Positions 12,627 through 59,531 of a stretch of DNA of 64,000 bases are shown in pieces; positions within the stretch are counted from its first letter, which is position 1; every line of letters starts with the position of its first letter. The stretch spans positions 6,108 to 70,107 of the forward strand of contig JAPKZQ010000029.1 of assembly GCA_026393675.1 (NCBI GenBank), given 5' to 3'. The notes below the pieces were generated by a model. It saw only the letters and a list, made by a program, of their open reading frames with translations, was not told the DNA's origin and ran no database searches. Made by a program: the position numbers and the translations under genes. The DNA is from Acidobacteriota bacterium. Its GTDB lineage: Bacteria > Acidobacteriota > Vicinamibacteria > Vicinamibacterales > JAKQTR01.

Positions 12627-12775
12627 CCGCCAGTGTCGAGTCTCGTGCAGGGGAGGGGCGTCGAGAGTGGCGCTCCTCCCCGCGCCGTGTACGGCTACTT
12701 CGCCGGGCGGCGCTGTCTACGATGACGCGAATTCTGGGTCGGTTAGGCCTGTGGCGCGGGCGAATTCTGTGCCGC

Positions 12776-14605: not shown

Positions 14606-14708
14606 AGATCGGTCTAACGGTACATCGGCGCGAACCCCGTTCAACTTTCGGCTCCGGGAGAAAAACAGCGGCCTCCCGTCGCATGGCTAGCCGTGCAAGA
14701 ATACGGCG

Positions 14709-15683
14709 ATGGCGCGTTACCTCGCAAGGCGTCTTGTGTTCTCGCTGCTCCTGGTCCTCGTGGTGGCCTCCGCGGCGCTGGTCCTGACCAGGCTGGCTCC
14801 CGGCGATATCACGGCGGAACAGGTGGGCACCGGGGTCTCCGGCAGAACGCTGGCCGCCGACCGCTTGCGGCTTGGGCTCGACCGGCCGCTGGCCCAGCAG
14901 TACCTCGAATGGGTGGGCCGGGCCGTGCGGCTGGATTTCGGGACGTCGATCATGTACGGGCGCCCGGTGGCAGGGCTGGTGGCCGAGCGGGCCCGCAACA
15001 CGGCGCTGCTAGCGGTGGTCGCGCTGCTGGTCGCCACCCTGATCGGGCTGCCGCTCGGTGTCATCGCGGGCAGCCGGCGCGGTGTGGTGTCGACGCTGGT
15101 CAGATCGGGCTCGGTGCTGGCGCTCTCGCTGCCGTCGCTCGTGAGTTCGCTGCTGCTGGTCTTCGTGGCCGCACGCACGGGCTGGCTGCCAACCGGCGGC
15201 ATGACCGCGCTGGACCCCGGCGCGGGCGGATGGTTCGCAAGCGTCGTGGATCTGGCGCGCCACCTGGTGCTGCCCGCCGCGGCGCTGGCCCTGCCTCTTT
15301 CGGCGACGATCGAACGCCTGCAGGCCCGGGCCGTCGCCGACACGCTCCGGGAACCGTTCGTGGTGGCGGCGCTCGCTCGCGGCGTACCCGCGTCGCGCGT
15401 GCTGTGGCGCAGCGCCCTCAAGCCGGCCCTGCGTCCAGTGACGGCCATCTATGGTTTGATCTTCGGCAGCCTGCTCAGCGGATCGTTCGTGGTCGAAATT
15501 GTGACGTCGTGGCCGGGTCTGGGCCGCCTGATGTTCGATGCGCTTCGGTCGCGCGACTTGTACCTGGTGGCCGGATGCGCGGCGGCGGGCGGGGCGTTTC
15601 TCGCGGTGGGCGGCCTGCTGTCTGATCTCGCCCTGGCCATTGTCGACCCGCGTCTGCGTGGGTCTGCCGGGACCGACTCATGA
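14709..15683 (+). CDS. ABC transporter permease, OppB/DppB family
   Basis: N-terminal MARYLARRLVFSLLLVLVV and the EAA-like loop typical of binding-protein-dependent peptide permeases. ATGA overlap with the next gene. Confidence 0.85.
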   Translation: MARYLARRLVFSLLLVLVVASAALVLTRLAPGDITAEQVGTGVSGRTLAADRLRLGLDRPLAQQYLEWVGRAVRLDFGTSIMYGRPVAGLVAERARNTALLAVVALLVATLIGLPLGVIAGSRRGVVSTLVRSGSVLALSLPSLVSSLLLVFVAARTGWLPTGGMTALDPGAGGWFASVVDLARHLVLPAAALALPLSATIERLQARAVADTLREPFVVAALARGVPASRVLWRSALKPALRPVTAIYGLIFGSLLSGSFVVEIVTSWPGLGRLMFDALRSRDLYLVAGCAAAGGAFLAVGGLLSDLALAIVDPRLRGSAGTDS

Positions 15684-16699
15684 AGCGCGTCGGCTGGGTC
15701 GTGCTCATCGGCATGGCGCTGGTCGCGCTTATCGCGCCGCTCCTGACACCCCACACGCCTGGCGAGCGTTTCGCGGATCGCCTTTACGCGCCGCCGATGC
15801 GGCCGCACATCATCGATGCCGATGGGCGCTGGCGCGCGCCCTTCGTCTATCCCGTGCAACTGGTTGATCGGCTCGAGCGGCGCTACGAGGAAGACCGCGC
15901 GCATCCCATCCAGCTGCGATGGTTCTCCGGAGGCGTGATCGTGGGCGTCTCCACCGAAGACGGGGCGCCGTGGCTGCCGCTTGGTGGCGACGGATCCGGG
16001 CGCGATGTGTTCGCGCGCCTCGTTTACGGCGCGCGGTTGTCGCTCGGCGTCGCGCTCATCGCCACGCTCGGCGCCTTGCTCATCGGCACGCTGGTTGGCG
16101 GCGCGGCGGGAGTCGCGGGCGGACTGGTCGACGACGGGCTGATGCGGCTATCGGATTTTGTGCTGGTGCTGCCCGCGATGTATGTGGTGCTGGCGTTGCG
16201 GGCGGCGATGCCGCTGGTGCTGGCCACGCCGGCCGTCTTCGCACTCGTGGCCGGCATCATGGCGATTGTGGGTTGGCCGCTCGTCGCTCGCGGCGTTCGC
16301 GCCATTGTCGCCGTGGAGCGCGAACGCGACTACGCGCAGGCCGCGCGCTCACTGGGCATGGGACGATGGCGCCTGCTCGTCCGGCACCTGCTGCCCGCCG
16401 CGCGCGGATACCTCGCGACACAGGCCACATTGCTGCTGCCCGGCTTCATCCTCGCCGAAGCCACGCTCTCGTATATGGGTTTCGGGTTTCCGGATCCGGA
16501 GGCGAGCTGGGGATCGATGCTCCAAGAAGCAGCCACTGTCGCGGCCATTGCGGACGCGCCGTGGACGCTCGCCCCGGCGCTCGCGATCTTCGCCGTGGTG
16601 CTGGCCGTCAATCTCATCGTCCAGGCGCCGGAGTTCACCTCGGTGACCGGGCTGGGTGCCGGTACTGGATTCAATCGGCGCCACCGACCGATCGAGTAG
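15680..16699 (+). CDS. ABC transporter permease, OppC/DppC family
   Basis: MKRVGWVVLIGMALVALIAPLLTPH.. N-terminus typical of OppC; six TM segments; translationally coupled to the upstream permease. Confidence 0.85.
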   Translation: MKRVGWVVLIGMALVALIAPLLTPHTPGERFADRLYAPPMRPHIIDADGRWRAPFVYPVQLVDRLERRYEEDRAHPIQLRWFSGGVIVGVSTEDGAPWLPLGGDGSGRDVFARLVYGARLSLGVALIATLGALLIGTLVGGAAGVAGGLVDDGLMRLSDFVLVLPAMYVVLALRAAMPLVLATPAVFALVAGIMAIVGWPLVARGVRAIVAVERERDYAQAARSLGMGRWRLLVRHLLPAARGYLATQATLLLPGFILAEATLSYMGFGFPDPEASWGSMLQEAATVAAIADAPWTLAPALAIFAVVLAVNLIVQAPEFTSVTGLGAGTGFNRRHRPIE

Positions 16700-45901: not shown

Positions 45902-46021
45902 CCCGGGCGGCCGCCGATCCCATTCACGTTATCCGGCGCGGTGCCGATTGCCTCTGCAGACGCGGCGTGTCGTCAGGCCGCCAGCGTCCCCGCGCGGCTG
46001 GCGACAGCAGGGAGGGGATCG

Positions 46022-46267
46022 GTGATTGCCGTAACGCGCCTCGACGGCCAGAAGCTGTTTGTCAATGCCGACCTTATCGAGAGCATTGAACAGACGCCCG
46101 ACACGATCATCTCCTTCACGAGCGGGCACAAAATGCTCGTCCGCGATCATCCTGAAGAGCTGGCCCGCCGTGTGATTGAGTACAGGCGGGCGACGCTGGC
46201 GCCGCTGGCCGAACAACCCGAACCACCAGCCCAGCTCGGTCCGGCGACCACGGCGGAGCGATCATGA
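46022..46267 (+). CDS. flbD: Flagellar protein FlbD
   Basis: VIAVTRLDGQKLFVNADLIESIEQTPDTIISFTSGHKMLVRDHPEEL matches the FlbD pattern (I.LTRLNG..F.LNA.LIE.IE.TPDT.I.L..G.K..V.E). GTG start with a GGAGGGG RBS; lies directly upstream of motA. Confidence 0.6.
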   Translation: MIAVTRLDGQKLFVNADLIESIEQTPDTIISFTSGHKMLVRDHPEELARRVIEYRRATLAPLAEQPEPPAQLGPATTAERS

Positions 46268-47064
46268 GCCACGACAAAGGCGTGCGCATCGACGTGTCGT
46301 CGTTTATCGGCGTCCCGCTGGCCATTGGTCTGATCCTGATCGGTCAATGGTACGAGGGCGGCTCGGTTCTCTCGTTGCTGCAACCGACGGCCGCCATGAT
46401 TGTGTTTGGCGGGACCTTTGGCGCCGTCATGCTGAGCTTCTCGAGAAACGACATCATTCGGGCCTTCGGTGCGCTGAGGACGGTGTTTCTCTGGGATGGG
46501 GAGGCGCCGTCGAAGACGATTGATACGATTCTCCAATACGCCTATCGTGCACGGAAAGACGGCATCCTGTCGCTCGACTCGGACCTGGACAAGATCACGG
46601 ACCCCTTTCTCGAGAAGGCCATCCACCAGCTCGTCGATTCCAACAGCCCGCAGACCCTGCGTGACGTGCTCGAAATCGAGAGCCGCGGTCGGGAGGATTA
46701 CGACGAGATTCCCGCCAAGGTCTACGAGGCGGCCGGCGGCTATGCGCCGACCATCGGCATTCTGGGGGCCGTGATTGGCCTGATCCAGGTGATGCAGCAC
46801 CTGACGGATCCGACCAAGCTCGGCCAGGGCATTGCCGTGGCCTTCGTCGCGACGGTGTACGGGGTGGGATCGGCGAACCTGTTCTTTCTGCCGGCGGCGA
46901 CCAAGTTGAAGATGAAGGCCCGGCACGAGGCGCGGCGCCGCGAACTGACGCTCGAAGGTGTCCTCGCGATCCAGGAGGGCCTGTTCCCCCGGATGATCCA
47001 GGAAAAACTCTACGGCTTTGCCGCCCAGATCGCGCCCAAACAAGAGAAACCACATCGTGCATAG
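46264..47064 (+). CDS. motA: Flagellar motor stator protein MotA (MotA/TolQ/ExbB proton channel family)
   Basis: Four TM segments with conserved MotA C-terminal TM3/TM4 (IGILGAVIGLIQVMQHL...GIAVAFVATVYGVGSANLFFLP). Confidence 0.85.
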   Translation: MSHDKGVRIDVSSFIGVPLAIGLILIGQWYEGGSVLSLLQPTAAMIVFGGTFGAVMLSFSRNDIIRAFGALRTVFLWDGEAPSKTIDTILQYAYRARKDGILSLDSDLDKITDPFLEKAIHQLVDSNSPQTLRDVLEIESRGREDYDEIPAKVYEAAGGYAPTIGILGAVIGLIQVMQHLTDPTKLGQGIAVAFVATVYGVGSANLFFLPAATKLKMKARHEARRRELTLEGVLAIQEGLFPRMIQEKLYGFAAQIAPKQEKPHRA

Positions 47065-47890
47065 CAGTCGATTCAGACGACACGATCGCGAACCTGTCGA
47101 GGTGCCGAAGCCCCGGCCGAGGCCCCGGCGTCCACGTGCACCAGAGCACCCGAACCACGAACGCTGGCTGGTGTCCTACGCCGACTTCATCACGCTGCTG
47201 TTCGCCGTGTTTGCGATGATGTACGCGTTGTCGGTCGTCGATGCGAAGAAGTTCGCGGCGCTCGCCCAGTCCCTACGGTCGGCGTTCAACGAGACGACAC
47301 CCGCCGACCTGCACGCCGTAGGCACCGTGCTCATCAATGACAGGAACAACCCGCCATCGGCCAAGAAGCCTGGCGCCGGAGGCCTCGTCGATCTGGCCGA
47401 GGTGCGTGCCCAACTGCAACAGCGGCTCGCGAAAGCGATCGGCGCGAACCAGGTCGACATGGAAATGGACCACCGGGGGCTGGTGATCTCGATTCGCGAA
47501 GCGGGGTCGTTTGCCACCAGCCGGGCAGAACTCTCGGCGACGGCGCACGACATCCTGGCCGAGATCGGGCTCGCGCTCGCCAATGTGGGAAACAGCGTGA
47601 GAATCGAGGGGCACACCGACGATGTGCCCATCCACTCGGACCGGTTCGCGTCGAACTGGGAGTTGTCGACCGCACGGGCCACGACCGTCGTCCGCTTCAT
47701 GCTCGAACGCGCCGGGCTCCAGCCGAAACGACTGTCGGCTGCCGGTTACGCCGAGTACATGCCGCGTGTTCCGGGCGTGTCGGATGCCGCCCGTGCGCGG
47801 AATCGACGCGTCGATCTCATCGTGCTCAGCCCGCCGACGCAGGCGGCCGAAGAGCCCGTCGCCATGACGAGCCGGCCGCCCACACCGTAG
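47018..47890 (+). CDS. motB: Flagellar motor stator protein MotB (plug/TM plus OmpA-like peptidoglycan-binding domain)
   Basis: ERWLVSYADFITLLFAVFAMMYALS TM with the conserved Asp. C-terminal OmpA-like region (VRIEGHTDDVPIHSDRFASNWELSTARA). The start may instead be the GTG at 47057, which overlaps the motA stop by 8 nt. Confidence 0.8.
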   Translation: MPPRSRPNKRNHIVHSSRFRRHDREPVEVPKPRPRPRRPRAPEHPNHERWLVSYADFITLLFAVFAMMYALSVVDAKKFAALAQSLRSAFNETTPADLHAVGTVLINDRNNPPSAKKPGAGGLVDLAEVRAQLQQRLAKAIGANQVDMEMDHRGLVISIREAGSFATSRAELSATAHDILAEIGLALANVGNSVRIEGHTDDVPIHSDRFASNWELSTARATTVVRFMLERAGLQPKRLSAAGYAEYMPRVPGVSDAARARNRRVDLIVLSPPTQAAEEPVAMTSRPPTP

Positions 47891-47995: not shown

Positions 47996-49630
47996 TCAGA
48001 TCGACGAGGCGTGGGCGACGTGGTGGCGCCGCAGGACGCGTTCGGCGGCCCGGACGCCTCGGTACTGCGCTTCCTCGAACAACGAGAGCCCGCTGAGATC
48101 CGAATGCGCGAAGTGGAGCGGGCCGTCAAGCGCGGCCACCCGCTGCCTCGCCTCGCCCCACACAAAGCCGGGTCGCGGGCAAATCATGGCGTGTCCCCAC
48201 AACATCATGTCGAGGTTGGTGACGAGCGACGCGATCTCGGGATGCGGACGCGACAGGTCCTCGATCATGAAGTCGGCCCAGCCCTCCCAACCGCGAGAGA
48301 GCAGCAGCGTCCGCGCATCCGAGGCCGGCCGGCCGGCCAGCGCGTGGTAGAAGGTCAGCACCGTCTCGCGTGGCCTGCTCTGCAGGCTCTGGTGGGTCGC
48401 CACCACGTACCCGAGCGTCGGGCTCTTGTAGATGACGTTGTCCCACGCGATCGGCACGCCGGCTCGTGCCGTCGGAAACGCACGGAGCGTCAGGTTGGCG
48501 ACCAGCCACGGCGCGTAGTCGAACTGGGCGAGGTCGTGCCGGACCTCCGCCTGGAGCGTCGGGACGATGTAGTTCGCAAATGACGACGGACACGCCAGGA
48601 TGACATCGTCGGCCACCAGCCTGGTGGTGACGCGATCCCGGGCGTTGTACGTGTCGACGGTGGCGCCGGTGCCGGTGGGCGTGATGCGGAACACGAGCGC
48701 GTCGCGCGTCACGTGACGCGCCAGCGAGTGCGCGAGGCGAGTGACGATCCAGCCAATGCCCTCCGGCCAGGTCAGCAGCGTGGTCTCCGACACCCTTGCG
48801 CTCTCACCCTCGCGACTCGCGAAGTAGTGCACGCCGGCCCACGCCGACACGTCACTCGAGTAACTGCCGTAATCATCGCGACAGCAGTAATCCACGTACC
48901 AGTGCAGCGCCGGGGCATCGAGCTTCTGTTCGAGGAGAAAGTCGCGCATCGACATCCGATCGAGCGCGATCAGATCAGGCTCACGCGCACTCATCTCCAT
49001 CGGAATCGCGAACGCCGGCCGGCCATCGGCATCGCGCCGGTCGCGGTAGCCGGCGACCAGATCCCTGAACCGATCCAGCTGATCACGTTCCCGGCGGCTG
49101 ATGCCCAACGTGGGCACGAGACCGTCCTGCCACTTGCCGTTGATGTAGAGCCGTTCCTCCGGGGCACCGCAGACGAACGTCTCCTCGTAGATCGGTTTGC
49201 CCGAGGTGTCGTAGCCCTGGATGATGCCGAGCTCCTGGAACAGTTCCCGGACGGCGCGTGACTCGCGCGTGGGAAACGGCACGTAGTGGGCGCCCCACGG
49301 GAACGCGCTCACGGCGTTTCGCCCCGAGCGCGCGTTGCCGCCGGCGTCAGCTTCAAGTTCCAGAATCTCGAAGTCCGTGAACCCGGACTTGCGGAGCTTC
49401 CAGCCCGCCGACAGGCCTGCGACGCCGCCGCCCACGATGACCACCGGCACGCGCCGCTCGGCATACGGTGCCGGCAGGCCGCCCTGCCTGAGCAGATGTC
49501 CCACGCTCTCGCTCGCGCCCACGATGCGCCCGTCGAAGGCGAATCGCCGGCCTGACGATCGTGTGCATCCCGACACGGCCAGGGAGGCCGCGACACCAGC
49601 TGAACCGATCAGGAATTGTCGTCTCTTCAT
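47996..49630 (-). CDS. Tat-signal, lipobox-bearing FAD/NAD(P)-binding oxidoreductase (flavin amine oxidase-like Rossmann protein)
   Basis: MKRRQFLIGSAGVAASLAVSGC (twin-arginine motif plus lipobox) followed by the dinucleotide-binding motif VVIVGGGVAGLSAG...ELEADAGGNARS. Last gene of the speH operon. Confidence 0.7.
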   Translation of the reverse strand: MKRRQFLIGSAGVAASLAVSGCTRSSGRRFAFDGRIVGASESVGHLLRQGGLPAPYAERRVPVVIVGGGVAGLSAGWKLRKSGFTDFEILELEADAGGNARSGRNAVSAFPWGAHYVPFPTRESRAVRELFQELGIIQGYDTSGKPIYEETFVCGAPEERLYINGKWQDGLVPTLGISRRERDQLDRFRDLVAGYRDRRDADGRPAFAIPMEMSAREPDLIALDRMSMRDFLLEQKLDAPALHWYVDYCCRDDYGSYSSDVSAWAGVHYFASREGESARVSETTLLTWPEGIGWIVTRLAHSLARHVTRDALVFRITPTGTGATVDTYNARDRVTTRLVADDVILACPSSFANYIVPTLQAEVRHDLAQFDYAPWLVANLTLRAFPTARAGVPIAWDNVIYKSPTLGYVVATHQSLQSRPRETVLTFYHALAGRPASDARTLLLSRGWEGWADFMIEDLSRPHPEIASLVTNLDMMLWGHAMICPRPGFVWGEARQRVAALDGPLHFAHSDLSGLSLFEEAQYRGVRAAERVLRRHHVAHASSI

Positions 49631-49663
49631 CGGGTCGCGCGGCTGTTGGGGGCCGCAGGCCTC

Positions 49664-51160
49664 CTACTGGGTGACCTGGTGCCACTCGGCATCGTAGTAC
49701 TGAACCAGGATCTGATTGTCGAGCCGGTTCACCTCGACGGCCACCGGCTGCATGTCCGGCGGAAACAGGAACAGCTGCCGCAGGACGTCGACGGTCAGGA
49801 ACCGCAGCCCCGGCGGCATCGTCGCTGGCACCTGGTACGGCCGTCGCGACGCCATCACGAAGCCCCATTCGCCAAACGACGGGACGTAGACGTGGTACGG
49901 GAACACGGACAGGCCGACCGATTCGATGGTCCTGACAATGCACCAGTAGGACTTCCTGGCGAAGAGCGGCGACGTCGACTGCACCACGATGATGCCCTGG
50001 CTCGACAGGTGGCGCTCGAGCAGGCGGTAGAACGCGGTCGTGTAGAGCTTGCCGATGGAGTGGTTGGTGGGATCGGGGAAGTCCACCACGACGAAATCGT
50101 AGAACCCGGGATCCGATTGCAGCCAGATGAAGGCATCCGCGTTGATGACCTTGACGCGAGGGTCGGCAAACGCGCCCTGGTTCAATGCCCGAAGTGCCTT
50201 GTGTGAGGTGAACAGCTTTGTCACCTCCGCGTCGAGGTCGACCAGCGTGATCGCGCCGACGTCCGGCCGCTTGACGATTTCCCGCAGGGCGAGCCCGTCG
50301 CCGCCGCCCAGCACGAGCACCTGCGTCGGGCGCGCCAGGGCCTGAAGCCCGGGATGCACGAGGGCTTCGTGGTAGCGGTACTCGTCCTTCGAACTGAACT
50401 GCAGGTGCCCGCCGAGGAAGAGCCGGATGTCATCCTGCCAGCGTGTGACGATGATGCGCTGATAGGGGGTGGTTTTGGCGAGGATGATCTCGTCGGCGTA
50501 GAGACCCTGTTCGGCGTAGGTGGTGATCTGATCGGCGAGCCCAAAGCCGCCGGCGAGCACGACGATCGCCACCACGCACTGGCCGGTCAACGCGCGCACG
50601 CCCGGCAGGTCGCGGCGGAACATCCAGGCCGTGGCGAGCGCCACCACCGCGTTCAGCAGCCCGAACAGCAGGCACGTTCGTACCAGGCCAAGCTTCGGGC
50701 CGAGCAGCAGCGGAAACAACAGCGACGCCACGAGCGCACCCAGGTAGTCGAACGTCAGCACCTGCGACACCAGGTCTTTGAACTGGATGCGCGACTTCAG
50801 AATCCGCAGGAGCAGCGGGATCTCGAGGCCGACCAGGATGCCGACGGCGATCACGAAGGAGAACAGCACGAGGCGCAGCGAGCCGAGATAGGAGAACGCC
50901 AGGAACATTGAGGCCGCCGAAAACCCGCCGACCAACCCCACGGCGATCTCAATCTGAATGAAGCGCGTGATGAGCCCGCGGCCGATGAACCGCGAGAGGT
51001 ACGAACCCACCCCCATCGCGAACAGGTACGTGCCGATGATCGTGGAGAACTGCGTGATCGAGTCACCCAGCAGGTAACTGGCCAGCGCGCCCGACACGAG
51101 CTCGTAGACGAGCCCGCACGACGCGATGGCGAACACCGAGAGCAACAGGGCGTAGGTCAC
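49664..51160 (-). CDS. Membrane-fused spermidine synthase-like aminopropyltransferase (N-terminal about 7-TM domain plus C-terminal SpeE-like methyltransferase fold)
   Basis: Polytopic N-terminus. C-terminal VLVLGGGDGLALREIVKRP....ITLVDLDAEV...FDFVVVDFPDP matches the spermidine/spermine synthase signature. GTG start overlaps the DUF350 stop (TAGTG). Confidence 0.85.
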   Translation of the reverse strand: MTYALLLSVFAIASCGLVYELVSGALASYLLGDSITQFSTIIGTYLFAMGVGSYLSRFIGRGLITRFIQIEIAVGLVGGFSAASMFLAFSYLGSLRLVLFSFVIAVGILVGLEIPLLLRILKSRIQFKDLVSQVLTFDYLGALVASLLFPLLLGPKLGLVRTCLLFGLLNAVVALATAWMFRRDLPGVRALTGQCVVAIVVLAGGFGLADQITTYAEQGLYADEIILAKTTPYQRIIVTRWQDDIRLFLGGHLQFSSKDEYRYHEALVHPGLQALARPTQVLVLGGGDGLALREIVKRPDVGAITLVDLDAEVTKLFTSHKALRALNQGAFADPRVKVINADAFIWLQSDPGFYDFVVVDFPDPTNHSIGKLYTTAFYRLLERHLSSQGIIVVQSTSPLFARKSYWCIVRTIESVGLSVFPYHVYVPSFGEWGFVMASRRPYQVPATMPPGLRFLTVDVLRQLFLFPPDMQPVAVEVNRLDNQILVQYYDAEWHQVTQ

Positions 51161-51378
51161 TACCCGTGGATCGCGGCCGCGATGATGACGCAGATGCCGA
51201 GCGACATCGCGCCGACGACAATCGCCAGGGCCACGTTGTGGTCGTCAATGATCTCCTTCCACAAGTGGTAGGGCGTCAGTCGATCGATCACGACAAACGA
51301 CAGCCAGAAGACGATGATGCCGAGGAAGGCGTAGACCACGGCATTAGCGACCGCGGCGAGGGGGGTGATGCCAGTCAT
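51160..51378 (-). CDS. DUF350-like small membrane protein (72 aa, two TM)
   Basis: MTGITPLAAVANAVVYAFLGIIVFWLSFVVIDRLTPYHLWKEIIDDHNVALAIVVGAMSLGICVIIAAAIHG. The family assignment is from memory of DUF350 proteins adjacent to SpeE-like genes. Confidence 0.55.
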   Translation of the reverse strand: MTGITPLAAVANAVVYAFLGIIVFWLSFVVIDRLTPYHLWKEIIDDHNVALAIVVGAMSLGICVIIAAAIHG

Positions 51379-51409
51379 AGGGTTGTCCTCACGGAAGCGT
51401 GACCGCCGT

Positions 51410-51586
51410 TCACTTGTGATAGTAGCGCTGGTACACCGTGCGATACGCGCCCGGGTTGTCCCGGATCGACTTCGGCACGTTCTTGACCTCGTCGTAACTG
51501 GTGAGGCTCCAGCCGGTGTAGTTGGCCCAGCCCAGCAGCCCCAGCACGACCGCGCCGTACGTCAGAAATGCCCCAATGCGTCTCAC
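51410..51586 (-). CDS. Hypothetical 58-aa membrane micro-protein
   Basis: GTG start preceded by GGGAGAGGG, 17 nt after the upstream stop. Encodes VRRIGAFLTYGAVVLGLLGWANYTGWSLTSYDEVKNVPKSIRDNPGAYRTVYQRYYHK. Confidence 0.3.
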   Translation of the reverse strand: MRRIGAFLTYGAVVLGLLGWANYTGWSLTSYDEVKNVPKSIRDNPGAYRTVYQRYYHK

Positions 51587-51603
51587 GTGCCCTCTCCCGT
51601 CCG

Positions 51604-52926
51604 CTATTGCGAAAAGTACGCGGCTCTGCCCGATTCTTCCGCACGGCTGCTTTCCGCCCACCGCTGCGTTTCGAACGACCGGCTCCTGAGCCAGAAGATC
51701 ATCGGGTAGATGCTCAGGGCGACCAGCGCGACCGGCAGGAACCAGTACCTCGGCACGTCACGATAGACCCTGACGATGTATCCCACTGGAGGCGTATCCG
51801 AGTCCGGTTCAATCCGAAGATAGTACTGGCCCGCTGGCACGCTCGGCAGGACCGCTTCATCCGATCGTCCTCCCTCGGACCACGACTCGCCTCCCTCGAC
51901 ACCACGGTAGTAGCTGACCTCGCGGCCGAAGTCGTACGCCTGGCCGCTGTCGAGATTGATGAGGGCCATGCTGAGGTAGATCCACTTGTTCTCTACGTCG
52001 GCCGTGGTCTCGACGACGACGTTGGACGCGTGACCGGTCAGTGGGAAGGGCTCAGTGACCAGCGCCTTACCCCGTTCCTCCTGCGTGAACGTGTACGCCT
52101 GCTCGAAGACCTTGCGGTTTTGCGCCAGCGCGCAACTGGCCATCTGGACAATGACCGCCGCCGCGGCAAGGCCGGCAAAGGCCCGGCCGATCCCCTTCGC
52201 CTTCGCTGAGTGCGGCGAGGGCTGATTGGCGTAGACGCCAATCCGCGTGGGTATCGCGCCTTTGAGGCCAAAGGCCTGCGCCACCGCCTCGGGTTCGACG
52301 TACTCACCCAGCGACCACGTGGTCTCTTCCTTGGTCTTCTCCTTGCTCAGCATGAGCGGAGGCATCACGTAGTCGGAGACAAAGGCCTTTTCGCCCACTG
52401 ACACGCGCCAGTAGAATTCGCCGAGGACGTAAGTGACCCGGGCTTCCGCGGTCTGGAAGAGGTTGAACGTGCTGCCGAGATAGGTCACCGTCTGATTGAC
52501 GCCGTCCTCGGGCTGTCCCGTGGTCGTCTTCACGTCGTTCCAGTGGCCGTTGTACTCGGTGAGCCAGCGGAAACCCTTGTAGGGATTGAACAGCAGGTAC
52601 TCACTCCACTCGTAGTCGGTCCCCTCGACGGTGATCGCCCGGCACATGAAGCCGATGACCTCGTACGGATCGCCGCGCAGGGCGCCGCGCGTGCCGAGCG
52701 GGATGACGGGATGGCGCTTGACGTGGGCATCGAACGTCGAGATGACGCGCAGGTCGTCGCTCGAGATGTCGACCACCGACCCGCACGATGTGCAGACAAT
52801 CGTCGTGGTCTGGCCCAGTCCGCGGACCTCGAGCCGGCCGGCGCACTTTGGACACTGGAGCGCGCGGATCGACGGCGCCTGGGCCGTCGCGAGTGGCGAT
52901 GGGCCGCGAGGGGTGTTACCAGCCAT
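51604..52926 (-). CDS. Zinc-ribbon plus DUF4178-like domain protein with a C-terminal membrane/TM region
   Basis: N-terminal CPKC...CTSC zinc ribbon. Aromatic-rich domain (GDPYEVIGFMCRAITVEGTDYEWSEYLLFNPYKGFRWLTEYNGHW) resembling DUF4178. Hydrophobic segments near the C-terminus. Confidence 0.5.
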   Translation of the reverse strand: MAGNTPRGPSPLATAQAPSIRALQCPKCAGRLEVRGLGQTTTIVCTSCGSVVDISSDDLRVISTFDAHVKRHPVIPLGTRGALRGDPYEVIGFMCRAITVEGTDYEWSEYLLFNPYKGFRWLTEYNGHWNDVKTTTGQPEDGVNQTVTYLGSTFNLFQTAEARVTYVLGEFYWRVSVGEKAFVSDYVMPPLMLSKEKTKEETTWSLGEYVEPEAVAQAFGLKGAIPTRIGVYANQPSPHSAKAKGIGRAFAGLAAAAVIVQMASCALAQNRKVFEQAYTFTQEERGKALVTEPFPLTGHASNVVVETTADVENKWIYLSMALINLDSGQAYDFGREVSYYRGVEGGESWSEGGRSDEAVLPSVPAGQYYLRIEPDSDTPPVGYIVRVYRDVPRYWFLPVALVALSIYPMIFWLRSRSFETQRWAESSRAEESGRAAYFSQ

Positions 52927-53548
52927 CGATCTGTCTCAATCCGGACAGCCTGAGCGCGTCAAACTCCACGTACGTGCCGAGAAACACGATCGGCGGATCC
53001 TCGCTGTAGTCGAGCGTGGCACATGCCGGCCCGGCGCCCGTCAGATCCGCGACCGGGGCTTCGTACCCCCCGCCAATCACAAAGGGCAGTTCGCCTTCGC
53101 CCGCCACGCAGACACCGCGCTCAACATCGGTGACCCGGAACGCGCGTCGGTCCAGCAGCACCTGCTGACCAGGTTGCAGTGTGTCAAACGGCGGGATAGG
53201 CTCCAGAACAGGCGTCGCGAACGACACGGCCAGCGTGCCCTGTGCCTCCCCCAGCCACCCGCTTCGCGCGTCGTCAAAGAGCAGGTGCCACTCGTTCCAC
53301 AGGCCGTGGTCGTAGCGGAGTTGGATGCGGCCGACCGTCGTGAAGTGCACGGACCCGTACCAGCCCTGGACGCCCAACTGGAACGGCGAGCCGTCCATCT
53401 GCAGTTCCGCCATGCGTCCCAGATTCTCCACGTCCAGATCTTTGCGGAGAATCGTGGAGCGGCAGTACGCGCAGACGGCCAGAATCGAGATCGACGACTG
53501 GAAGGTGTTCGGTCCGCCGCAGGTGGGACACGCAAAGCTGCGGCTCAT
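52916..53548 (-). CDS. Zinc-ribbon plus DUF4178-like domain protein (210 aa)
   Basis: MSRSFACPTCGG...CAYC zinc ribbon, then DGSPFQLGVQGWYGSVHFTTVGRIQLRYDHGLWNEWHLLFDDARSGWL, paralogous to the following gene. The ATG at 53548 overlaps the speH stop (ATGA). Confidence 0.5.
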   Translation of the reverse strand: MSRSFACPTCGGPNTFQSSISILAVCAYCRSTILRKDLDVENLGRMAELQMDGSPFQLGVQGWYGSVHFTTVGRIQLRYDHGLWNEWHLLFDDARSGWLGEAQGTLAVSFATPVLEPIPPFDTLQPGQQVLLDRRAFRVTDVERGVCVAGEGELPFVIGGGYEAPVADLTGAGPACATLDYSEDPPIVFLGTYVEFDALRLSGLRQIDGW

Positions 53549-53946
53549 CGCGGGATGACTCCACTGCCCGAGCGGTCCGACGCCAGCGACCGATCCGCTG
53601 CGGCACCGTAGTCGCGTTCGCACTGCGTCACCCGCACCGAACAGTGCCCGAGCGAGACCGCCAGCAATGATGGCCAGTCGGGGCACGCGCGAGGTGTGCA
53701 GCAGAAGAGATTCACGCTGGCGGATGCGAACTCGGGGAACGTGTGAATGGTGAGGTGCGACTCCTGCAGCATCCACACGGCCGTTACGCCGCCGGTCGTC
53801 GGAAACTGATGCCACGCCGGGCGTCCGATCGGCCGCAGCCCCATGCGATCGACGATGGTCTCGAACAGGCTCACCATCGCGTGCGGATCCCGCAGTGGCG
53901 GCACCTCGCACTCCGATACGTCGATCAGCCACTCCACGCCGTTCAC
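53545..53946 (-). CDS. speH: S-adenosylmethionine decarboxylase proenzyme, small prokaryotic class (pyruvoyl-dependent)
   Basis: LQESHLTIHTFPEFASASVNLFCCT aligns with the conserved (I/L)SESH(L/I)(T/S)IHTWPE autoprocessing/active-site region of bacterial AdoMetDC; length about 130 aa. Confidence 0.85.
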   Translation of the reverse strand: MNGVEWLIDVSECEVPPLRDPHAMVSLFETIVDRMGLRPIGRPAWHQFPTTGGVTAVWMLQESHLTIHTFPEFASASVNLFCCTPRACPDWPSLLAVSLGHCSVRVTQCERDYGAAADRSLASDRSGSGVIPR

Positions 53947-54208
53947 GCCTGGTGCGCCCCCTTGCCCACGGCCCCTGTGCCGGCCGCTGGTACACGTCTC
54001 CCGCGAGGGGGCAGAGGTGGGCGGCCATCAAAAAACGAGGAACACTTATACCCTACGGGATCGCGACTGACGGATCAACAGATTTCAAGCCCTGAGCTCA
54101 CCTCGGTGGTGGACGGTTGCGGAAGGTTGTGCCCTTGTGTCACGGCCTCAGAGGAGGCCGCCTGGTGCGCAACTCAACTCAGGTCGAAGGGTGGATGCCG
54201 GGTCGGAT

Positions 54209-55648
54209 CTACGAATCGGCTGGGGGGCACGGAAAAGCCACCGTCACGCGCGTGCCCCGGCCCGGAGTGCTGTCGACGGCGATGGCGCCCCCTGTCGCGT
54301 GCGCGACGCCGAGCACCGCAGGGAGGCCCATGCCACGGCCCAGGAACTTCGTGGAGAAGAAGGGGTCGAAGATGCGACTGATGGTCTCGGCCTCCATGCC
54401 CACGCCCTGATCCTCCACCGACAGGCACACGTACCGTCCGGGCGCGATGCGCTCGCCGGCAACCCACGGGCGGGGGTCGCTGGCGGCGACGTCTTCGATG
54501 CGGGTGCGCACGCTCGCACGCCCTGGTCGATCGGCCATGGCTTCGGCGGCGTTGGTCACGAGGCTGGTCAGCACCTGCTGAATCTGCTGCCGATCCGCCC
54601 GAATCAGGGCGCTGCCGGACGCCAGATCGAGGTCAAATATTGCCGCCGGCGGCATCAGGGCTCTGATAAACGCGGCTCGTTCGCGTATCTCGTCATTCAG
54701 ATCGAATACCGTGAATCTGACAAGCGTCCCGCGTCCTGCGTAGACGAGCAGTTGGGCGGTCAGATTGGAGGCGCGCTCGCTCGCGTGCACGACCGACTGC
54801 AAGCAACCGCGCGCCGGGCCGTCGGCTGGCACGTCCTCGAGGGCCAGCGCCGTGCTGGTGAGCACGATCTGCAGCAGGTTATTGAATTCGTGCGCGATGC
54901 CCGCCGCCAGCGTGACGATGCGGTCGGATTCGCGACCGCGTTTGAGCGCCTCTTCCGTGCGCTTCTCCTCGGTGATGTCCCGCGCCACGCCGACCAGCGC
55001 GACGGGCGCGCCGGCGTCGTCGCGCACGATTGAGGTTGAGAGGAAGATCTGGAAGTCGGTGCCGTCCTTCTTCCGGTTCCACAGTTCGCCCCGCCAGCCG
55101 CCCCGCAGCGTTGCCGGGAAGACCTCGAGCGCCACCTCTTCACGGTTCTTGTCCGACCGCACGACCGCGATCGGCCGACCGAGCAGGTCGGATTCCTCGA
55201 ATCCATAGGTGTCGAGGAACGCCTTGTTGACGAAGATGACCCGATCGTTCATGTCGGTGACGCTGACGCACTCGCCGACCGATCGGACCGTGTGCGCGAG
55301 CATGTGAATGTGCTGCTGTGCGTGCCGGCGCTCGACGGCCTCCACGACGATGCGGTCGTGCAGCACGTCGCGCCGCCGAAGAATCACGTAGCCGGCAAGC
55401 GCGACGGCCACGCCGGAAAAGACGACGGTGATGATGTGGGATTCCCAGACCGTGATGTCAGGGTGCAGCCACTGTTTGCCGAGCTCCAGAACCAGCATGA
55501 CCCCGGCGACCCCGACGGCCAGCGCGGTGACTTCGATGGCCCGCCGACCTGCACGTGCCTCTGGTGGTCGGTCGATCGCCCTTTCGGCAGACCGGTTGGG
55601 GCCCGTCGACAGCGGACGATCCGAAAGCACAGGAGCAGATTTCGCCAT
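54209..55648 (-). CDS. PAS-domain sensor histidine kinase (two TM, PAS, HisKA, HATPase)
   Basis: TM helices; PAS (VSVTDMNDRVIFVNKAFLDTYGF...GVARDITEEKRTEEAL); H-box IAHEFNNLLQ; HATPase DQGVGM and GMGLPAV. Confidence 0.85.
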   Translation of the reverse strand: MAKSAPVLSDRPLSTGPNRSAERAIDRPPEARAGRRAIEVTALAVGVAGVMLVLELGKQWLHPDITVWESHIITVVFSGVAVALAGYVILRRRDVLHDRIVVEAVERRHAQQHIHMLAHTVRSVGECVSVTDMNDRVIFVNKAFLDTYGFEESDLLGRPIAVVRSDKNREEVALEVFPATLRGGWRGELWNRKKDGTDFQIFLSTSIVRDDAGAPVALVGVARDITEEKRTEEALKRGRESDRIVTLAAGIAHEFNNLLQIVLTSTALALEDVPADGPARGCLQSVVHASERASNLTAQLLVYAGRGTLVRFTVFDLNDEIRERAAFIRALMPPAAIFDLDLASGSALIRADRQQIQQVLTSLVTNAAEAMADRPGRASVRTRIEDVAASDPRPWVAGERIAPGRYVCLSVEDQGVGMEAETISRIFDPFFSTKFLGRGMGLPAVLGVAHATGGAIAVDSTPGRGTRVTVAFPCPPADS

Positions 55649-55946
55649 GAAACTGGAGCGAGGTGGGACAGCCCACAATCAGCGTTGTGACACCATGCTC
55701 CCGCAGCGGGAACATGAAGTCAAGGCCGCCGGTCCGAATACATCAGCGGATCGTGTCGAGCCTGCTACCCTGAACCTTGACACCGGCCGATAAGCAACGC
55801 AGCCCTCACCGTGGAGGTCCAACTGCGAGGCGACCAATGCGGCGATTCGTTGACTGTGGTAAAAAAACAACAGATGCGGGTGACAGGACCGTGGTTCGAG
55901 AGCCACAGTTGAGCCTGCAACACGAAAGATCCAGAGCGCGTAGAAT

Positions 55947-55979: not shown

Positions 55980-56058
55980 AGCTGATGACGTTTAGACCAT
56001 TTCGGTATGCGGATTGCTCTCTCCCGCGTGGTCCATCCCAGGGACCAGCGAGCGAATA

Positions 56059-56958
56059 ATGACATTTCAGCGAACGCTTCGGCATAAAGTGGCCTGTGCC
56101 GGCATCGGCCTCCACTCGGGACAAAAGGTGACTCTCGGTCTGAAGCCTGCTCCCGCAGACTCGGGGATCCGTTTTCGCCGGAGCGACCTGGGCACGGATA
56201 TTCCGGCCTCTGTGGTGCACTTGAGCGGGACCAACCACGCGACGGGGCTGTCCCGCAATGGGGCGACAGTCGACACGGTCGAGCACCTGCTGGCGGCGCT
56301 GGTCAGCCTGGGCATCGACAACGTGACGGTGGAACTGGATCGCAACGAAGTGCCGGTGATGGACGGCAGTGCGGCGCCATTCGTGTACCTGCTGCAGGAG
56401 GCCGGCACCAGGACGCTCAGTACGCCGCGCCGGTACCTGAAAGTGCTCAGGCCGATCACCGTGTCGCGGGGCGACAAGATGATGTCGCTCTACCCGGCCG
56501 AGAACTTCAAGGTCACCTACAGCATCAGCTTCGATCACCCGTTGCTGCGGCACCAGTCGCAGACATTCCAGGTGACCGAAGCGTCGTTTGTTGACGAGAT
56601 TGCGCCGGCCCGGACATTCGGCTTCCTGCACGAAGTCGAAATGTTGCGCCAGCAGGGGCTCGCGCTGGGCGGCTCGCTCGAAAACGCCATTGTCCTGAGC
56701 GAGACCGGCGTCCTCAACAACACGCTGCGGTTCGAGGACGAATTCGTGCGCCACAAGATCCTCGATGCGATTGGCGATCTGGCGCTTGTGGGATATCCGA
56801 TTCTTGGTCACCTGGTGGCCAACCGCGCCGGACACGCGCTGCACACGGCGTTTGCCAGGCAGTTGCTGTCAGAACCGGATGCGTGGAAGATCGTCGAGCT
56901 CCAGCCCGAATCGTCGTCGGTGGCGGTCCCGGCTGGCGTGCCCGTCCGGGCGAACTAG
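56059..56958 (+). CDS. lpxC: UDP-3-O-acyl-N-acetylglucosamine deacetylase
   Basis: MTFQRTLRHKVACAGIGLHSGQKV N-terminus and HK(I)LD...GDL zinc-site residues (FVRHKILDAIGDLAL). The antisense 288-aa ORF is an artefact. Confidence 0.9.
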   Translation: MTFQRTLRHKVACAGIGLHSGQKVTLGLKPAPADSGIRFRRSDLGTDIPASVVHLSGTNHATGLSRNGATVDTVEHLLAALVSLGIDNVTVELDRNEVPVMDGSAAPFVYLLQEAGTRTLSTPRRYLKVLRPITVSRGDKMMSLYPAENFKVTYSISFDHPLLRHQSQTFQVTEASFVDEIAPARTFGFLHEVEMLRQQGLALGGSLENAIVLSETGVLNNTLRFEDEFVRHKILDAIGDLALVGYPILGHLVANRAGHALHTAFARQLLSEPDAWKIVELQPESSSVAVPAGVPVRAN

Positions 56959-58289: not shown

Positions 58290-59531
58290 GTGACTGGATT
58301 CACCTATCGTGACGGCTCGTTGCAGTGTGATGAGATGTCGATCCCGGACATGGTCCGCGAGGTGGGCACGCCACTCTACGTCTACAGCGGCGGGGCCATT
58401 CGCGCCGCGTTTGCCGCGCTCGAAGCGGCGCTGGCGGGGTCGCACCACACCCTGCACTACGCGCTGAAAGCCAATTCCACCCTCGCCCTCCTGCGACTGC
58501 TCCGACGCCTGGGCGCCCACGCCGACGCCAATTCGGGCGGTGAGATCGAGGTGGCCATGCGGGCCGGGTTCGAGCCGGCCGAGATCGTGTTCACCGGGGT
58601 CGGCAAGACCCGCGATGAGCTCGATCACGCGGTGGCACTGGGCGTCAAGGCGATCAACATCGAATCCGACGGCGAAGCCGGTCGCATCGACGACCTCGCG
58701 CGGTCGCGCGGCGTCAAGGCGCGCGTGGCGCTCCGCGTCAATCCGGACATCGATCCGCATACGCACGCGCACATCTCGACCGGGCAGCGCTTCAACAAGT
58801 TCGGCGTGCCGATCGAGTACGCGCCGGCGCTGCTGCGCGACATGGCGCGTCGGCCTGGGCTCGATCCGGTCGGCCTGCACGTGCATCTCGGGTCGCAGAT
58901 CGTCGAGATGGAGCCGCTTGCCCGCGCAGCGCAGGCGCTCGCCCGGCTCGCGCGTGAGGCGCGGGACATGGGCCTGAGATTGCGGCACCTCGACCTCGGC
59001 GGCGGTCTTGGCATCGCCTATGACGGCGCGTCTCCGCCCGATCCGGTGCGGTACGCCGCGGCCATCGCGCCGATTGTGGAGGCATCCGGGCTCGATCTGC
59101 TGCTCGAGCCCGGACGCTACCTCGTTGGGCCGGCGGGCATTCTGGTCGGTCGCATCGCGGACCTCAAGTGCTACCCGGGCTCGCCGCGTTTCATGGTGCT
59201 CGACACGGGGATGACCGAACTTCTCCGTCCCGCGCTCTACGATGCCTATCATCGGATAGGGGCGGTGACGCCACGGGCAGGCGCCGAGCACGTGTACGAG
59301 GTGGTGGGTCCGCTTTGTGAGACCAGCGACACGCTCGGTCACGAGCGACGGTTCGGGCCCGTCGAGGTCGGTGATGCCATAGCGGTCTTCGATGCGGGGG
59401 CCTACGGGATCGTGATGGCGTCGAACTACAATCGACGCCGGCTGCCCGCCGAGGTGCTGGTCGACCAGGGGCGGAAGCAGATCATCCGTCAGCGTCAGAG
59501 CTATGACGATCTGATGGCGCGTGAAATGTAG
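58290..59531 (+). CDS. lysA: Diaminopimelate decarboxylase
   Basis: PLP fold-III decarboxylase motifs (HYALKANS, GGEIEVA, GGGLGIAY, EPGR, CESSD-like CETSDTL); GTG start. Confidence 0.9.
   Translation: MTGFTYRDGSLQCDEMSIPDMVREVGTPLYVYSGGAIRAAFAALEAALAGSHHTLHYALKANSTLALLRLLRRLGAHADANSGGEIEVAMRAGFEPAEIVFTGVGKTRDELDHAVALGVKAINIESDGEAGRIDDLARSRGVKARVALRVNPDIDPHTHAHISTGQRFNKFGVPIEYAPALLRDMARRPGLDPVGLHVHLGSQIVEMEPLARAAQALARLAREARDMGLRLRHLDLGGGLGIAYDGASPPDPVRYAAAIAPIVEASGLDLLLEPGRYLVGPAGILVGRIADLKCYPGSPRFMVLDTGMTELLRPALYDAYHRIGAVTPRAGAEHVYEVVGPLCETSDTLGHERRFGPVEVGDAIAVFDAGAYGIVMASNYNRRRLPAEVLVDQGRKQIIRQRQSYDDLMAREM

Follow-up and report, generated by a model that had tools for sequence, protein, structure and literature searches.

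A Band-7-less bacterial operon with a half-MFS-fused aminopropyltransferase and a Tat-signal flavoprotein: a candidate system for envelope-directed aminopropyl transfer

Thousands of bacteria possess an S-adenosylmethionine (AdoMet) decarboxylase (AdoMetDC) with a role other than spermidine synthesis; what this role is became a question in 2019. In that year, in Biochem J, Li, Kurihara, Kim, Liang and Michael reportedly described clusters that unite an AdoMetDC, a membrane-fused protein resembling spermidine synthase (SpdSyn) and DUF350. The associated AdoMetDCs are said to be active, DUF350 being noted as a clustered partner. Ravi, Anantharaman, Aravind, Gennaro and colleagues (mSystems 2024; PMC11237479) found a transmembrane (TM)-fused spermine synthase, DUF350, DUF4178 and a lipoprotein beside CesT/Tir-PspA, as well as PspA-free variants with band-7/SHOCT, AdoMetDC and polyamine oxidase. 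The operon type was tied to PspA/band-7 membrane-stress systems, and these systems were proposed to track polyamines or 'aminopropylation of other substrates' and thereby to change the structure of the membrane (PMC11237479). Where PMC12803844 cites Li et al. 2019, bacterial homologues of the membrane-aminopropyltransferase fusion are stated not to make spermidine or spermine. Here, we describe an operon of this type at positions 47996-53946, minus strand, of a 64-kb window, that is, the whole stretch of 64,000 nucleotides analysed from contig JAPKZQ010000029.1 of an Acidobacteriota bacterium. It encodes an AdoMetDC (SpeH), two DUF4178 proteins (a and b), a micro-protein, a DUF350 protein, a membrane-fused SpeE aminopropyltransferase and a flavin adenine dinucleotide (FAD) flavoprotein with a twin-arginine translocation (Tat) signal. 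This operon is the genetic unit behind the AdoMetDC question. It is widespread and belongs with systems believed to guard the membrane of the cell. As said in an earlier note on this DNA, made from the sequence alone, the function of the cluster has no experimental assignment.

The window operon is a Band-7-less member of the published operon type. The PspA-free band-7/SHOCT variant of Ravi et al. has the same parts, namely a TM-fused synthase, DUF350 (YjfL), DUF4178, AdoMetDC and a 'polyamine oxidase', and likewise no PspA. The window operon differs from it in lacking the band-7 gene that defines the variant, and the band-7 form is dominant around close SpeE relatives. The arrangement had thus already been published (Ravi et al. 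2024; PMC11237479). The operon of the Shewanella oneidensis SO_3763-SO_3766 type shares the membrane-fused aminopropyltransferase, DUF350 and DUF4178. Its parts are the lipoprotein Ctha_1186, DUF350, TM-Spermine_synth, CesT/Tir, PspA, DUF4178 and a ribbon-helix-helix (RHH) protein. Thus it has a CesT/Tir-PspA dyad, a different lipoprotein, an RHH regulator and a single DUF4178 and, unlike the window operon, neither an AdoMetDC nor an amine oxidase. Escherichia coli yjfJKLMC (CesT/Tir-DUF2170, the PspA-like YjfJ, DUF2491, the DUF350 protein YjfL, a DUF1190 lipoprotein and YjfC) has in common with the window operon DUF350, a polyamine-family enzyme and a periplasmic or lipoprotein part, in a membrane-stress setting. 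However, YjfC is a soluble ATP-grasp ligase resembling glutathionylspermidine synthetase, not an aminopropyltransferase, and the E. coli operon has no AdoMetDC, DUF4178 or flavoprotein. The clusters of Li et al. 2019, as cited, resemble the window operon in their dedicated AdoMetDC, membrane-fused SpdSyn-like protein and DUF350, and a role outside polyamine biosynthesis was concluded for them. The text and one supplementary file of PMC11237479 mention neither the DUF4178 pair, the micro-protein and the Tat signal of the oxidase, nor the half-MFS (major facilitator superfamily) nature and outward orientation of the transferase. As far as checked, the half-MFS fold, a predicted outward-facing catalytic domain, an invariant Tat signal and the micro-protein are additions to the published picture.

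We favour, with moderate confidence, a reading in which the operon is a self-contained system for envelope-directed aminopropyl transfer that serves something other than bulk spermidine synthesis. The analysis defines the full parts list, including the overlooked micro-protein. The membrane domain of the transferase is modelled as a half-MFS transporter with a lining of acidic residues, and a sharp prediction accompanies the favoured reading: both catalysis and oxidation would occur on the periplasmic side.

The open reading frame (ORF) map of the window confirmed seven minus-strand ORFs pointing the same way within 47996-53946. Features are listed below in the direction of transcription.

53947-54208, minus strand: upstream intergenic region of 262 nt, presumed promoter region
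53545-53946, minus strand: speH/speD, class 1b pyruvoyl AdoMetDC proenzyme, 133 aa from the GTG at 53946
52916-53548, minus strand: DUF4178 protein a, 210 aa
51604-52926, minus strand: DUF4178 protein b, 440 aa
51410-51586, minus strand: micro-protein, 58 aa, GTG start
51160-51378, minus strand: DUF350 protein (YjfL family), 72 aa
49664-51160, minus strand: membrane-fused SpeE aminopropyltransferase, 498 aa
50516-51160, minus strand: N-terminal membrane domain of SpeE, residues 1-215, predicted six-helix MFS lobe plus a seventh TM helix
49664-50515, minus strand: catalytic (PABS) domain of SpeE, residues ~216-498
47996-49630, minus strand: FAD flavoprotein with Tat signal and lipobox, 544 aa

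Gene callers place the start of speH at 53937, which gives a protein of 130 aa. The GTG start of the micro-protein is preceded by a ribosome-binding site, GGGAGAGGG. Read directly in the sequence, speH and the DUF4178a gene overlap in ATGA, the DUF4178 genes share 11 nt (ATGGCTGGTAA), and the DUF350 and speE genes overlap in TAGTG, just as the earlier note had described them for seven tightly packed minus-strand genes. The remaining intergenic gaps are 17-33 nt. The identical seven genes were called independently on metagenome contigs from the same organism. The seven genes form a real operon with translational coupling. Searches with profile models bore out all the family assignments of the earlier note, the Pfam matches exceeding their gathering cut-offs.

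Conservation was surveyed with one genome per GTDB species, in which relatives of the fused transferase were sought with two peptide patterns. At least 590 species-level genomes were confirmed to carry one. Neighbours were counted in the best 80 of these at least 590 loci, anchored on SpeE (individual loci are numbered L007, L008 and so on). Families were located by tblastn and had to be co-directional and within range; the denominators include only loci having sufficient flank. The speH gene was found in 50/65 loci, DUF4178a in 61/69, DUF4178b in 65/73, the micro-protein in 61/76, DUF350 in 63/76 and, downstream of SpeE, the flavoprotein in 44/64. A Band-7 gene lies upstream of speH in 46 of 59 loci. 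The gene order, described in the earlier note as conserved-looking, is indeed conserved in relatives, and the usual form of the operon has eight genes, with a Band-7 (SPFH) gene upstream of speH. Three flavoprotein homologues (52-56% identity) each end the same string of genes, in the order AdoMet_dc, DUF4178, DUF4178, an ORF of 56-57 aa, DUF350, Spermine_synth and flavoprotein. The DUF350 gene is not called in one of the three strings, and a Band_7/SHOCT gene precedes two of them. Clustering of the flanking ORFs of the 80 loci yielded no further conserved partner family, since no family reached more than 11 loci; the families at or below this number correspond to housekeeping synteny among Betaproteobacteria. 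The flanks thus share no further family, and the module is self-contained. It is widely and strongly conserved among bacteria, with unrelated flanking genes, and its arrangement is not a matter of chance.

By record title, carriers belong to Acidobacteriota (Bryobacterales, Terriglobia), Gemmatimonadota, Beta- and Gammaproteobacteria (Sulfuricella, Dechloromonas, Competibacteraceae, Gallionella, Chitinimonas) and Rhodospirillales, and one is a MAG (metagenome-assembled genome) titled 'Deltaproteobacteria'. Paludibaculum fermentans (L056) is a cultured carrier of the complete eight-gene version. Three loci titled Acidimicrobiia (L011), Bifidobacteriaceae (L036) and Arcobacter (L079) have Acidobacteriota-like operons and do not count as phyletic breadth; their titles probably arose from faulty binning or labelling, and L011 and L007 are one contig. 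In Beta- and Gammaproteobacteria, speH can move while the other operon genes are kept: L023 and L026 have it in divergent orientation upstream of Band-7, and in L048, L065 and L066 it comes after the flavoprotein gene. Relocation of speH with retention of the gene content points to functional linkage rather than inherited synteny.

Some loci depart from the common pattern. In proteobacterial loci where speH has moved, the micro-protein and/or DUF350 often went undetected by tblastn. A fused transferase (60-65% identical) without detectable nearby partners was seen in L014, L047, L052, L053, L067, L073, L080 and L085, mainly in proteobacterial MAGs of Competibacter, Azonexus, Dechloromonas and Propionivibrio. 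These are either stand-alone versions or cases in which the partners have diverged past the reach of tblastn. In L015 (Competibacteraceae), a DDE fragment of a Tn3-family transposase is located directly upstream of the module (5086-6015). Together with the unrelated flanks found everywhere, this fragment hints at horizontal movement of the module.

The fused SpeE matches NCBIfam NF002956 (PRK03612) over residues 3-496 of 498 (676.1 bits, cut-off 472) and Pfam Spermine_synth (PF01564; 121 bits, cut-off 22.9). It falls below the cut-off of NF037959, 'fused MFS/spermidine synthase' (25.6 against 40 bits). These scores place it in a subfamily related to, but distinct from, NF037959. In the catalytic domain, GGGDG 285-289, D310, D342, D360, D363 and Y263-H264-E265 are invariant in 81 of 81 sequences. 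D360-x-x-D363-P corresponds to the DxxDP motif that provides the catalytic and acceptor-binding Asp pair. All the canonical residues for binding decarboxylated AdoMet (dcSAM) and the acceptor are present, among them the GGGDG loop for dcSAM and the acidic ligands of its ribose and adenine. Loss of the conserved Asp residues, which the earlier note had named as the sign of a generic methyltransferase, is thus not observed. The closest solved relatives of the domain are 7xif and the Thermus enzymes 1uir/3anx, which are broad-specificity polyamine aminopropyltransferases, and the thermospermine synthase 6bq2.

The dcSAM supplier, SpeH, matches Pfam AdoMet_dc (PF02675) with 71.2 bits (gathering cut-off 25) and remains below the cut-off of the NCBIfam equivalog TIGR03330 (53.9 against 75.65). 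Alignment with the Thermotoga maritima AdoMetDC (1tlu) shows that the E-S-H self-cleavage site, the HTxPE motif and the Cys are kept: LQESHLTIHTFPE...FCC of SpeH aligns with ISESHLTIHTWPE...FTC of the T. maritima enzyme. The Glu-Ser self-cleavage pair and the catalytic His, Glu and Cys are conserved in 59 orthologues. By its residues, SpeH is predicted to be a catalytically intact pyruvoyl AdoMetDC. Neofunctionalised SpeD homologues acting on Arg or Orn exist (PMC10407285). The presence of an aminopropyltransferase in the same operon favours AdoMet as the probable substrate of SpeH.

The AlphaFold2 model of SpeE residues 1-215 (pLDDT, the predicted local distance difference test score, 88.8) contains seven helices of TM length, one of them kinked. 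According to this model, the membrane domain would be one six-helix MFS lobe followed by a seventh helix, whereas MFS transporters have two six-helix lobes (12 TM) per chain. The '7-TM N-terminal domain' of the earlier note is therefore right in its number of helices but is not a generic one. Four acidic residues, E20, E71, E113 and D138, are invariant in the 81 sequences and lie inside helices 1, 3, 4 and 5. D33, R161 (80/81) and N170 are invariant as well. In the same sequences, loops 2-3, 4-5 and 6-7 have on average 2.86, 3.67 and 1.83 Lys+Arg, against 0.09 at the N-terminus and 0, 0.80 and 0.69 in loops 1-2, 3-4 and 5-6. Helix 7 is followed by 20 residues of acidic character (3.9 Asp+Glu against 1.4 Lys+Arg). 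The helix itself has no charges along 17-21 residues, is about as hydrophobic as the other helices and has a low hydrophobic moment. MFS lobes start and finish on the cytoplasmic side. Taken together, the positive-inside charges, the MFS topology and the hydrophobic helix 7 argue for an N-terminus inside the cell, seven spans and a periplasmic catalytic domain. Within the favoured reading, we consider this predicted orientation somewhat likelier than the opposite one. A periplasmic catalytic side is unexpected, since dcSAM is made in the cytoplasm. A single MFS lobe is incapable of alternating access by itself. Aminopropyltransferases are dimers or tetramers and, because they dimerise, two half-MFS lobes may pair; by analogy with MFS transporters, a parallel homodimer could restore a two-lobed, MFS-like arrangement with an acidic cavity in its middle.

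The flavoprotein passed only one Pfam model, NAD_binding_8 (51 bits, cut-off 21.9). At least 7973 full-length homologues exist. Close homologues are recorded with PF01593 Amino_oxidase, a match that is weak in L007 and faint in L008. The N-terminal region carries the Tat motif KRRQFLIGSAGVAASLAV, which fits (S/T)RRxFLK followed by a hydrophobic region (KRRQFLIG...AVSGC). The signal, MKRRQFLIGSAGVAASLAVSG followed by Cys, is encoded at ~49565-49630. In 40 homologues, the RR pair is invariant and F6 is at least 90% conserved. In the window protein, V-S-G-C22 fits the lipobox [LVI][ASTVI][GAS]C, so that both signals read in the earlier note are present. A Cys follows the hydrophobic h-region in ~29 of the 38 homologues with the N-terminus shown, so lipidation would not extend to every member of the family. 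The FAD-binding motif at the N-terminus is the only part that matches entries of the Protein Data Bank (PDB) by sequence. The AlphaFold2 model (pLDDT 83) has the two-domain FAD/substrate fold of putrescine oxidase and MAO, with putrescine oxidase 2yg3 among its best Foldseek matches (E 5.6e-21, probability 1.00, TM-score 0.63/0.74). Other close folds are the monoamine oxidases MAO-A and MAO-B, a bacterial MAO solved with putrescine, and the Pseudomonas aeruginosa spermidine dehydrogenase SpdH (7d9f-j). The flavoprotein resembles 2yg3, MAO and SpdH in fold (Foldseek E ~1e-20, target-normalised TM-score 0.59-0.76) but has only 15-19% sequence identity with them, and its family has a Tat signal and usually a lipobox. 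From signal and model, it is best described as a putative Tat-exported, usually lipid-anchored enzyme of the amine-oxidase fold.

The micro-protein has an N-terminal TM helix and the motif VPKSxRDNPGAYR (VPKSVRDNPGAYR), which extends to VPKSxRDNPGAYR(S)xY and is usually followed by a tail ...RYxGGK. The motif and the terminal Lys are found in all 62 aligned sequences. Orthologues of 45-66 aa occupy the same operon position in the 61/76 loci (for instance L056 9530-9715), and no Pfam, NCBIfam or PADLOC model matches the micro-protein. It represents a genuine conserved gene family that is unannotated. The DUF350 protein encoded next to it (Pfam DUF350/YjfL, PF03994; 56.3 bits, cut-off 26) covers profile positions 4-66 of 133, that is, half of the model, and has two hydrophobic helices.

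Both DUF4178 proteins pass Pfam DUF4178 (PF13785; cut-off 25), DUF4178a with 33.7 bits and DUF4178b with 75.4 bits. DUF4178a has an N-terminal four-Cys zinc ribbon, CPxC...CxxC, followed by the DUF4178 domain, and carries motifs conserved across the aligned orthologues. Since it shows no TM segment and no signal peptide, it is presumably cytoplasmic. DUF4178b combines a four-Cys zinc ribbon and DUF4178 at residues ~24-212, its match to Zn_Ribbon_TF being weak. Hydrophobic segments and flanking charges indicate TM helices at ~248-269 and ~394-415 and a basic C-terminal tail. The ~125-aa domain between the helices (270-393) carries conserved motifs and is predicted to be periplasmic. DUF4178b therefore probably crosses the membrane and has portions on either side of it. 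The two proteins have no detectable pairwise similarity (BLASTP E=0.15). Their description as paralogues in the earlier note holds at the level of the Pfam family only, and a recent duplication, considered as the origin of the pair, was rejected because the pairwise similarity is not significant. When the SpeE membrane domain, the DUF4178b periplasmic domain and the micro-protein were each searched alone against Pfam at E up to 10, nothing meaningful was retrieved.

In the favoured reading, SpeH would make dcSAM in the cytoplasm. The fusion protein would dimerise, its two half-MFS lobes forming an MFS-like cation path, and its catalytic domain would sit on the periplasmic side. With a periplasmic catalytic domain, either dcSAM, or the amine acceptor and the product, must cross by way of the MFS-like path. 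The aminopropyl group would be handed, at the inner membrane or across it, to an acceptor that is not putrescine; this might be the amine of a lipid head group or of the cell wall, a diamine in the periplasm or the micro-protein itself. The aminopropylated product would end in the periplasm or the outer leaflet. The Tat-exported, probably lipid-anchored flavoprotein may oxidise it, either for turnover or to make an aldehyde of its new primary amine. Scaffolding or regulation at the cytoplasmic face could fall to DUF4178a and the N-terminal half of DUF4178b, joined in other genomes by Band-7. The micro-protein, DUF350 and the loop domain that DUF4178b is predicted to expose to the periplasm could be membrane or periplasmic subunits. 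In most genomes, Band-7 may take the membrane-organising role that PspA has in sister operons. A more specific version, which we rate as distinctly unlikely, places aminopropylation wholly outside the cytoplasm: the path through the homodimer would carry SpeH-made dcSAM to the periplasmic domain, and an envelope amine would be modified and then oxidised to an aldehyde. That amine might belong to a lipid head group, to the cell wall or to the terminal Lys of the micro-protein, and the aldehyde could cross-link or remodel the envelope in the manner of lysyl oxidase. If this were true, the bacterial periplasm would have its first group-transfer chemistry derived from S-adenosylmethionine (SAM), and the 'polyamine-independent role' of AdoMetDC would be accounted for.

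Several points weigh against envelope-directed transfer as set out here. D363 and the Tyr and Glu typical of diamine-using enzymes are present in SpeE, so that the acceptor may be a polyamine after all. The proteins of Li et al. may belong to a different subfamily, the window SpeE scoring 676 bits with NF002956 and 25.6 with NF037959. The partners are not always adjacent: the FAD gene is absent downstream in 20/64 loci and speH is absent upstream in 15/65. The orientation is a predicted topology, and the catalytic domain would be cytoplasmic if helix 7 did not span the membrane. Finally, periplasmic catalysis needs export of dcSAM, for which we know of no precedent.

The invariance of all the canonical SpeE residues, including both Asp of DxxDP, would also suit a dedicated system for polyamine synthesis and export. 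Here the fusion would make spermidine or another free polyamine from a diamine (norspermidine, thermospermine and aminopropyl-cadaverine are candidate products) and pass it to its own MFS-like domain. The polycations would stabilise the envelope (periplasm or outer membrane), and the flavoprotein would remove the excess. The nearest solved enzymes, broad-specificity polyamine aminopropyltransferases and a thermospermine synthase, agree with such a role. So do the four invariant intramembrane acidic residues of the MFS lobe, which suit polycations, and the flavoprotein fold, which is nearest to putrescine oxidase and spermidine dehydrogenase. There may also be a precedent in P. aeruginosa, where Johnson et al. 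reportedly traced, in 2012, surface spermidine to a second speD/speE pair. However, the hosts examined by Li et al. in 2019 are said to have no spermidine, and neither the fusion nor its catalytic domain is said to complement an E. coli speE mutant. Moreover, synthesis followed by export is inapplicable as stated if the catalytic domain is periplasmic. The published negatives on the making of spermidine or spermine by bacterial fusion homologues, as given where PMC12803844 treats them, point the same way and also put in doubt the polyamine synthesis suggested in the earlier note. Synthesis coupled to export is, to us, an unlikely account of the operon.

The literature calls for a non-putrescine acceptor, and this could in principle be a protein. 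The micro-protein, fixed beside DUF350 and SpeE in 61/76 loci and ending in Lys in 62/62 aligned sequences, or another envelope protein, would then be aminopropylated and the flavoprotein would oxidise the added amine. The micro-protein is nevertheless equally plausible as a structural subunit, basic residues at either end of its helix leave its membrane orientation ambiguous, and no aminopropyltransferase of the SpeE family is, to our knowledge, known to modify a protein lysine. We regard protein modification as very unlikely. A still different view starts from the resemblance of the flavoprotein to the catabolic putrescine oxidase and spermidine dehydrogenase: the MFS-like domain would import polyamines and the periplasmic flavoprotein degrade them, for catabolism or detoxification, with speH and SpeE only loosely associated. 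In L007, the operon is followed at 11947-16377 by genes for an aldehyde dehydrogenase, a class-III aminotransferase and a saccharopine-dehydrogenase-like protein, a trio suggestive of amino-aldehyde or polyamine catabolism. This trio is not recurrent, as no extra family occurs in more than 11/80 loci. Furthermore, speH and the intact transferase are translationally coupled and co-conserved with the rest, and a purely catabolic unit would need no dcSAM supplier. We therefore give uptake and degradation very little credence. Envelope-directed transfer onto an acceptor other than putrescine remains the reading that we prefer.

Most relatives carry Band-7 where the window has a gene for a PAS/HATPase histidine kinase (54209-55678, minus strand), 262 nt upstream of speH. 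Within the 64 kb of the window, tblastn with the Band-7/SHOCT protein of L007 as query gave no Band-7 homologue; a copy may lie elsewhere in the genome. The L007 protein, the one copy scanned, ends in a SHOCT domain. The Band-7 C-terminus varies, and in many members the family consensus has a Cys-rich tail, K-F-C-x-x-C-G...F-E-C-G, which suggests a zinc-ribbon version. Band-7 holds the position that PspA has in related operons. As the earlier note had claimed, there is no PspA in the cluster. No PspA was found in the Band-7-less loci either, where the upstream genes are mutually unrelated (a transglutaminase-like protein, the Tn3 transposase fragment, peptidases, HlyD, MacB/FtsX); replacement of Band-7 by PspA or another substitute was rejected on this ground.

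No Rfam family was detected in the whole window at gathering thresholds, and control by a riboswitch or another RNA was accordingly rejected. Between 47500 and 54400, no sigma-70-like promoter was found, and terminator-like sites occur at chance level only. A decarboxylase gene dependent on pyridoxal phosphate (PLP), ~4 kb upstream at 58290-59531 (plus strand), was considered as an ornithine decarboxylase and rejected: it encodes the diaminopimelate decarboxylase LysA (TIGR01048, 439 bits, cut-off 298). A role in anti-phage defence was also rejected, the PADLOC matches being generic Rossmann-type ones only: the transferase domain hit mad2, and the FAD motif hit a desaturase model. The operon is flanked on one side by flbD, motA and motB (flagellar stator) at 45941-47890 and on the other by lpxC at 56014-56958. 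Judging by the flagellar stator genes and lpxC, the host is a motile diderm that has lipid A as well as a true periplasm. The best matches of the window proteins are in Acidobacteriota MAGs, at up to 80% identity, and among metagenome proteins, at up to 91%; SpeE is at most 69% identical to its counterparts in species representatives.

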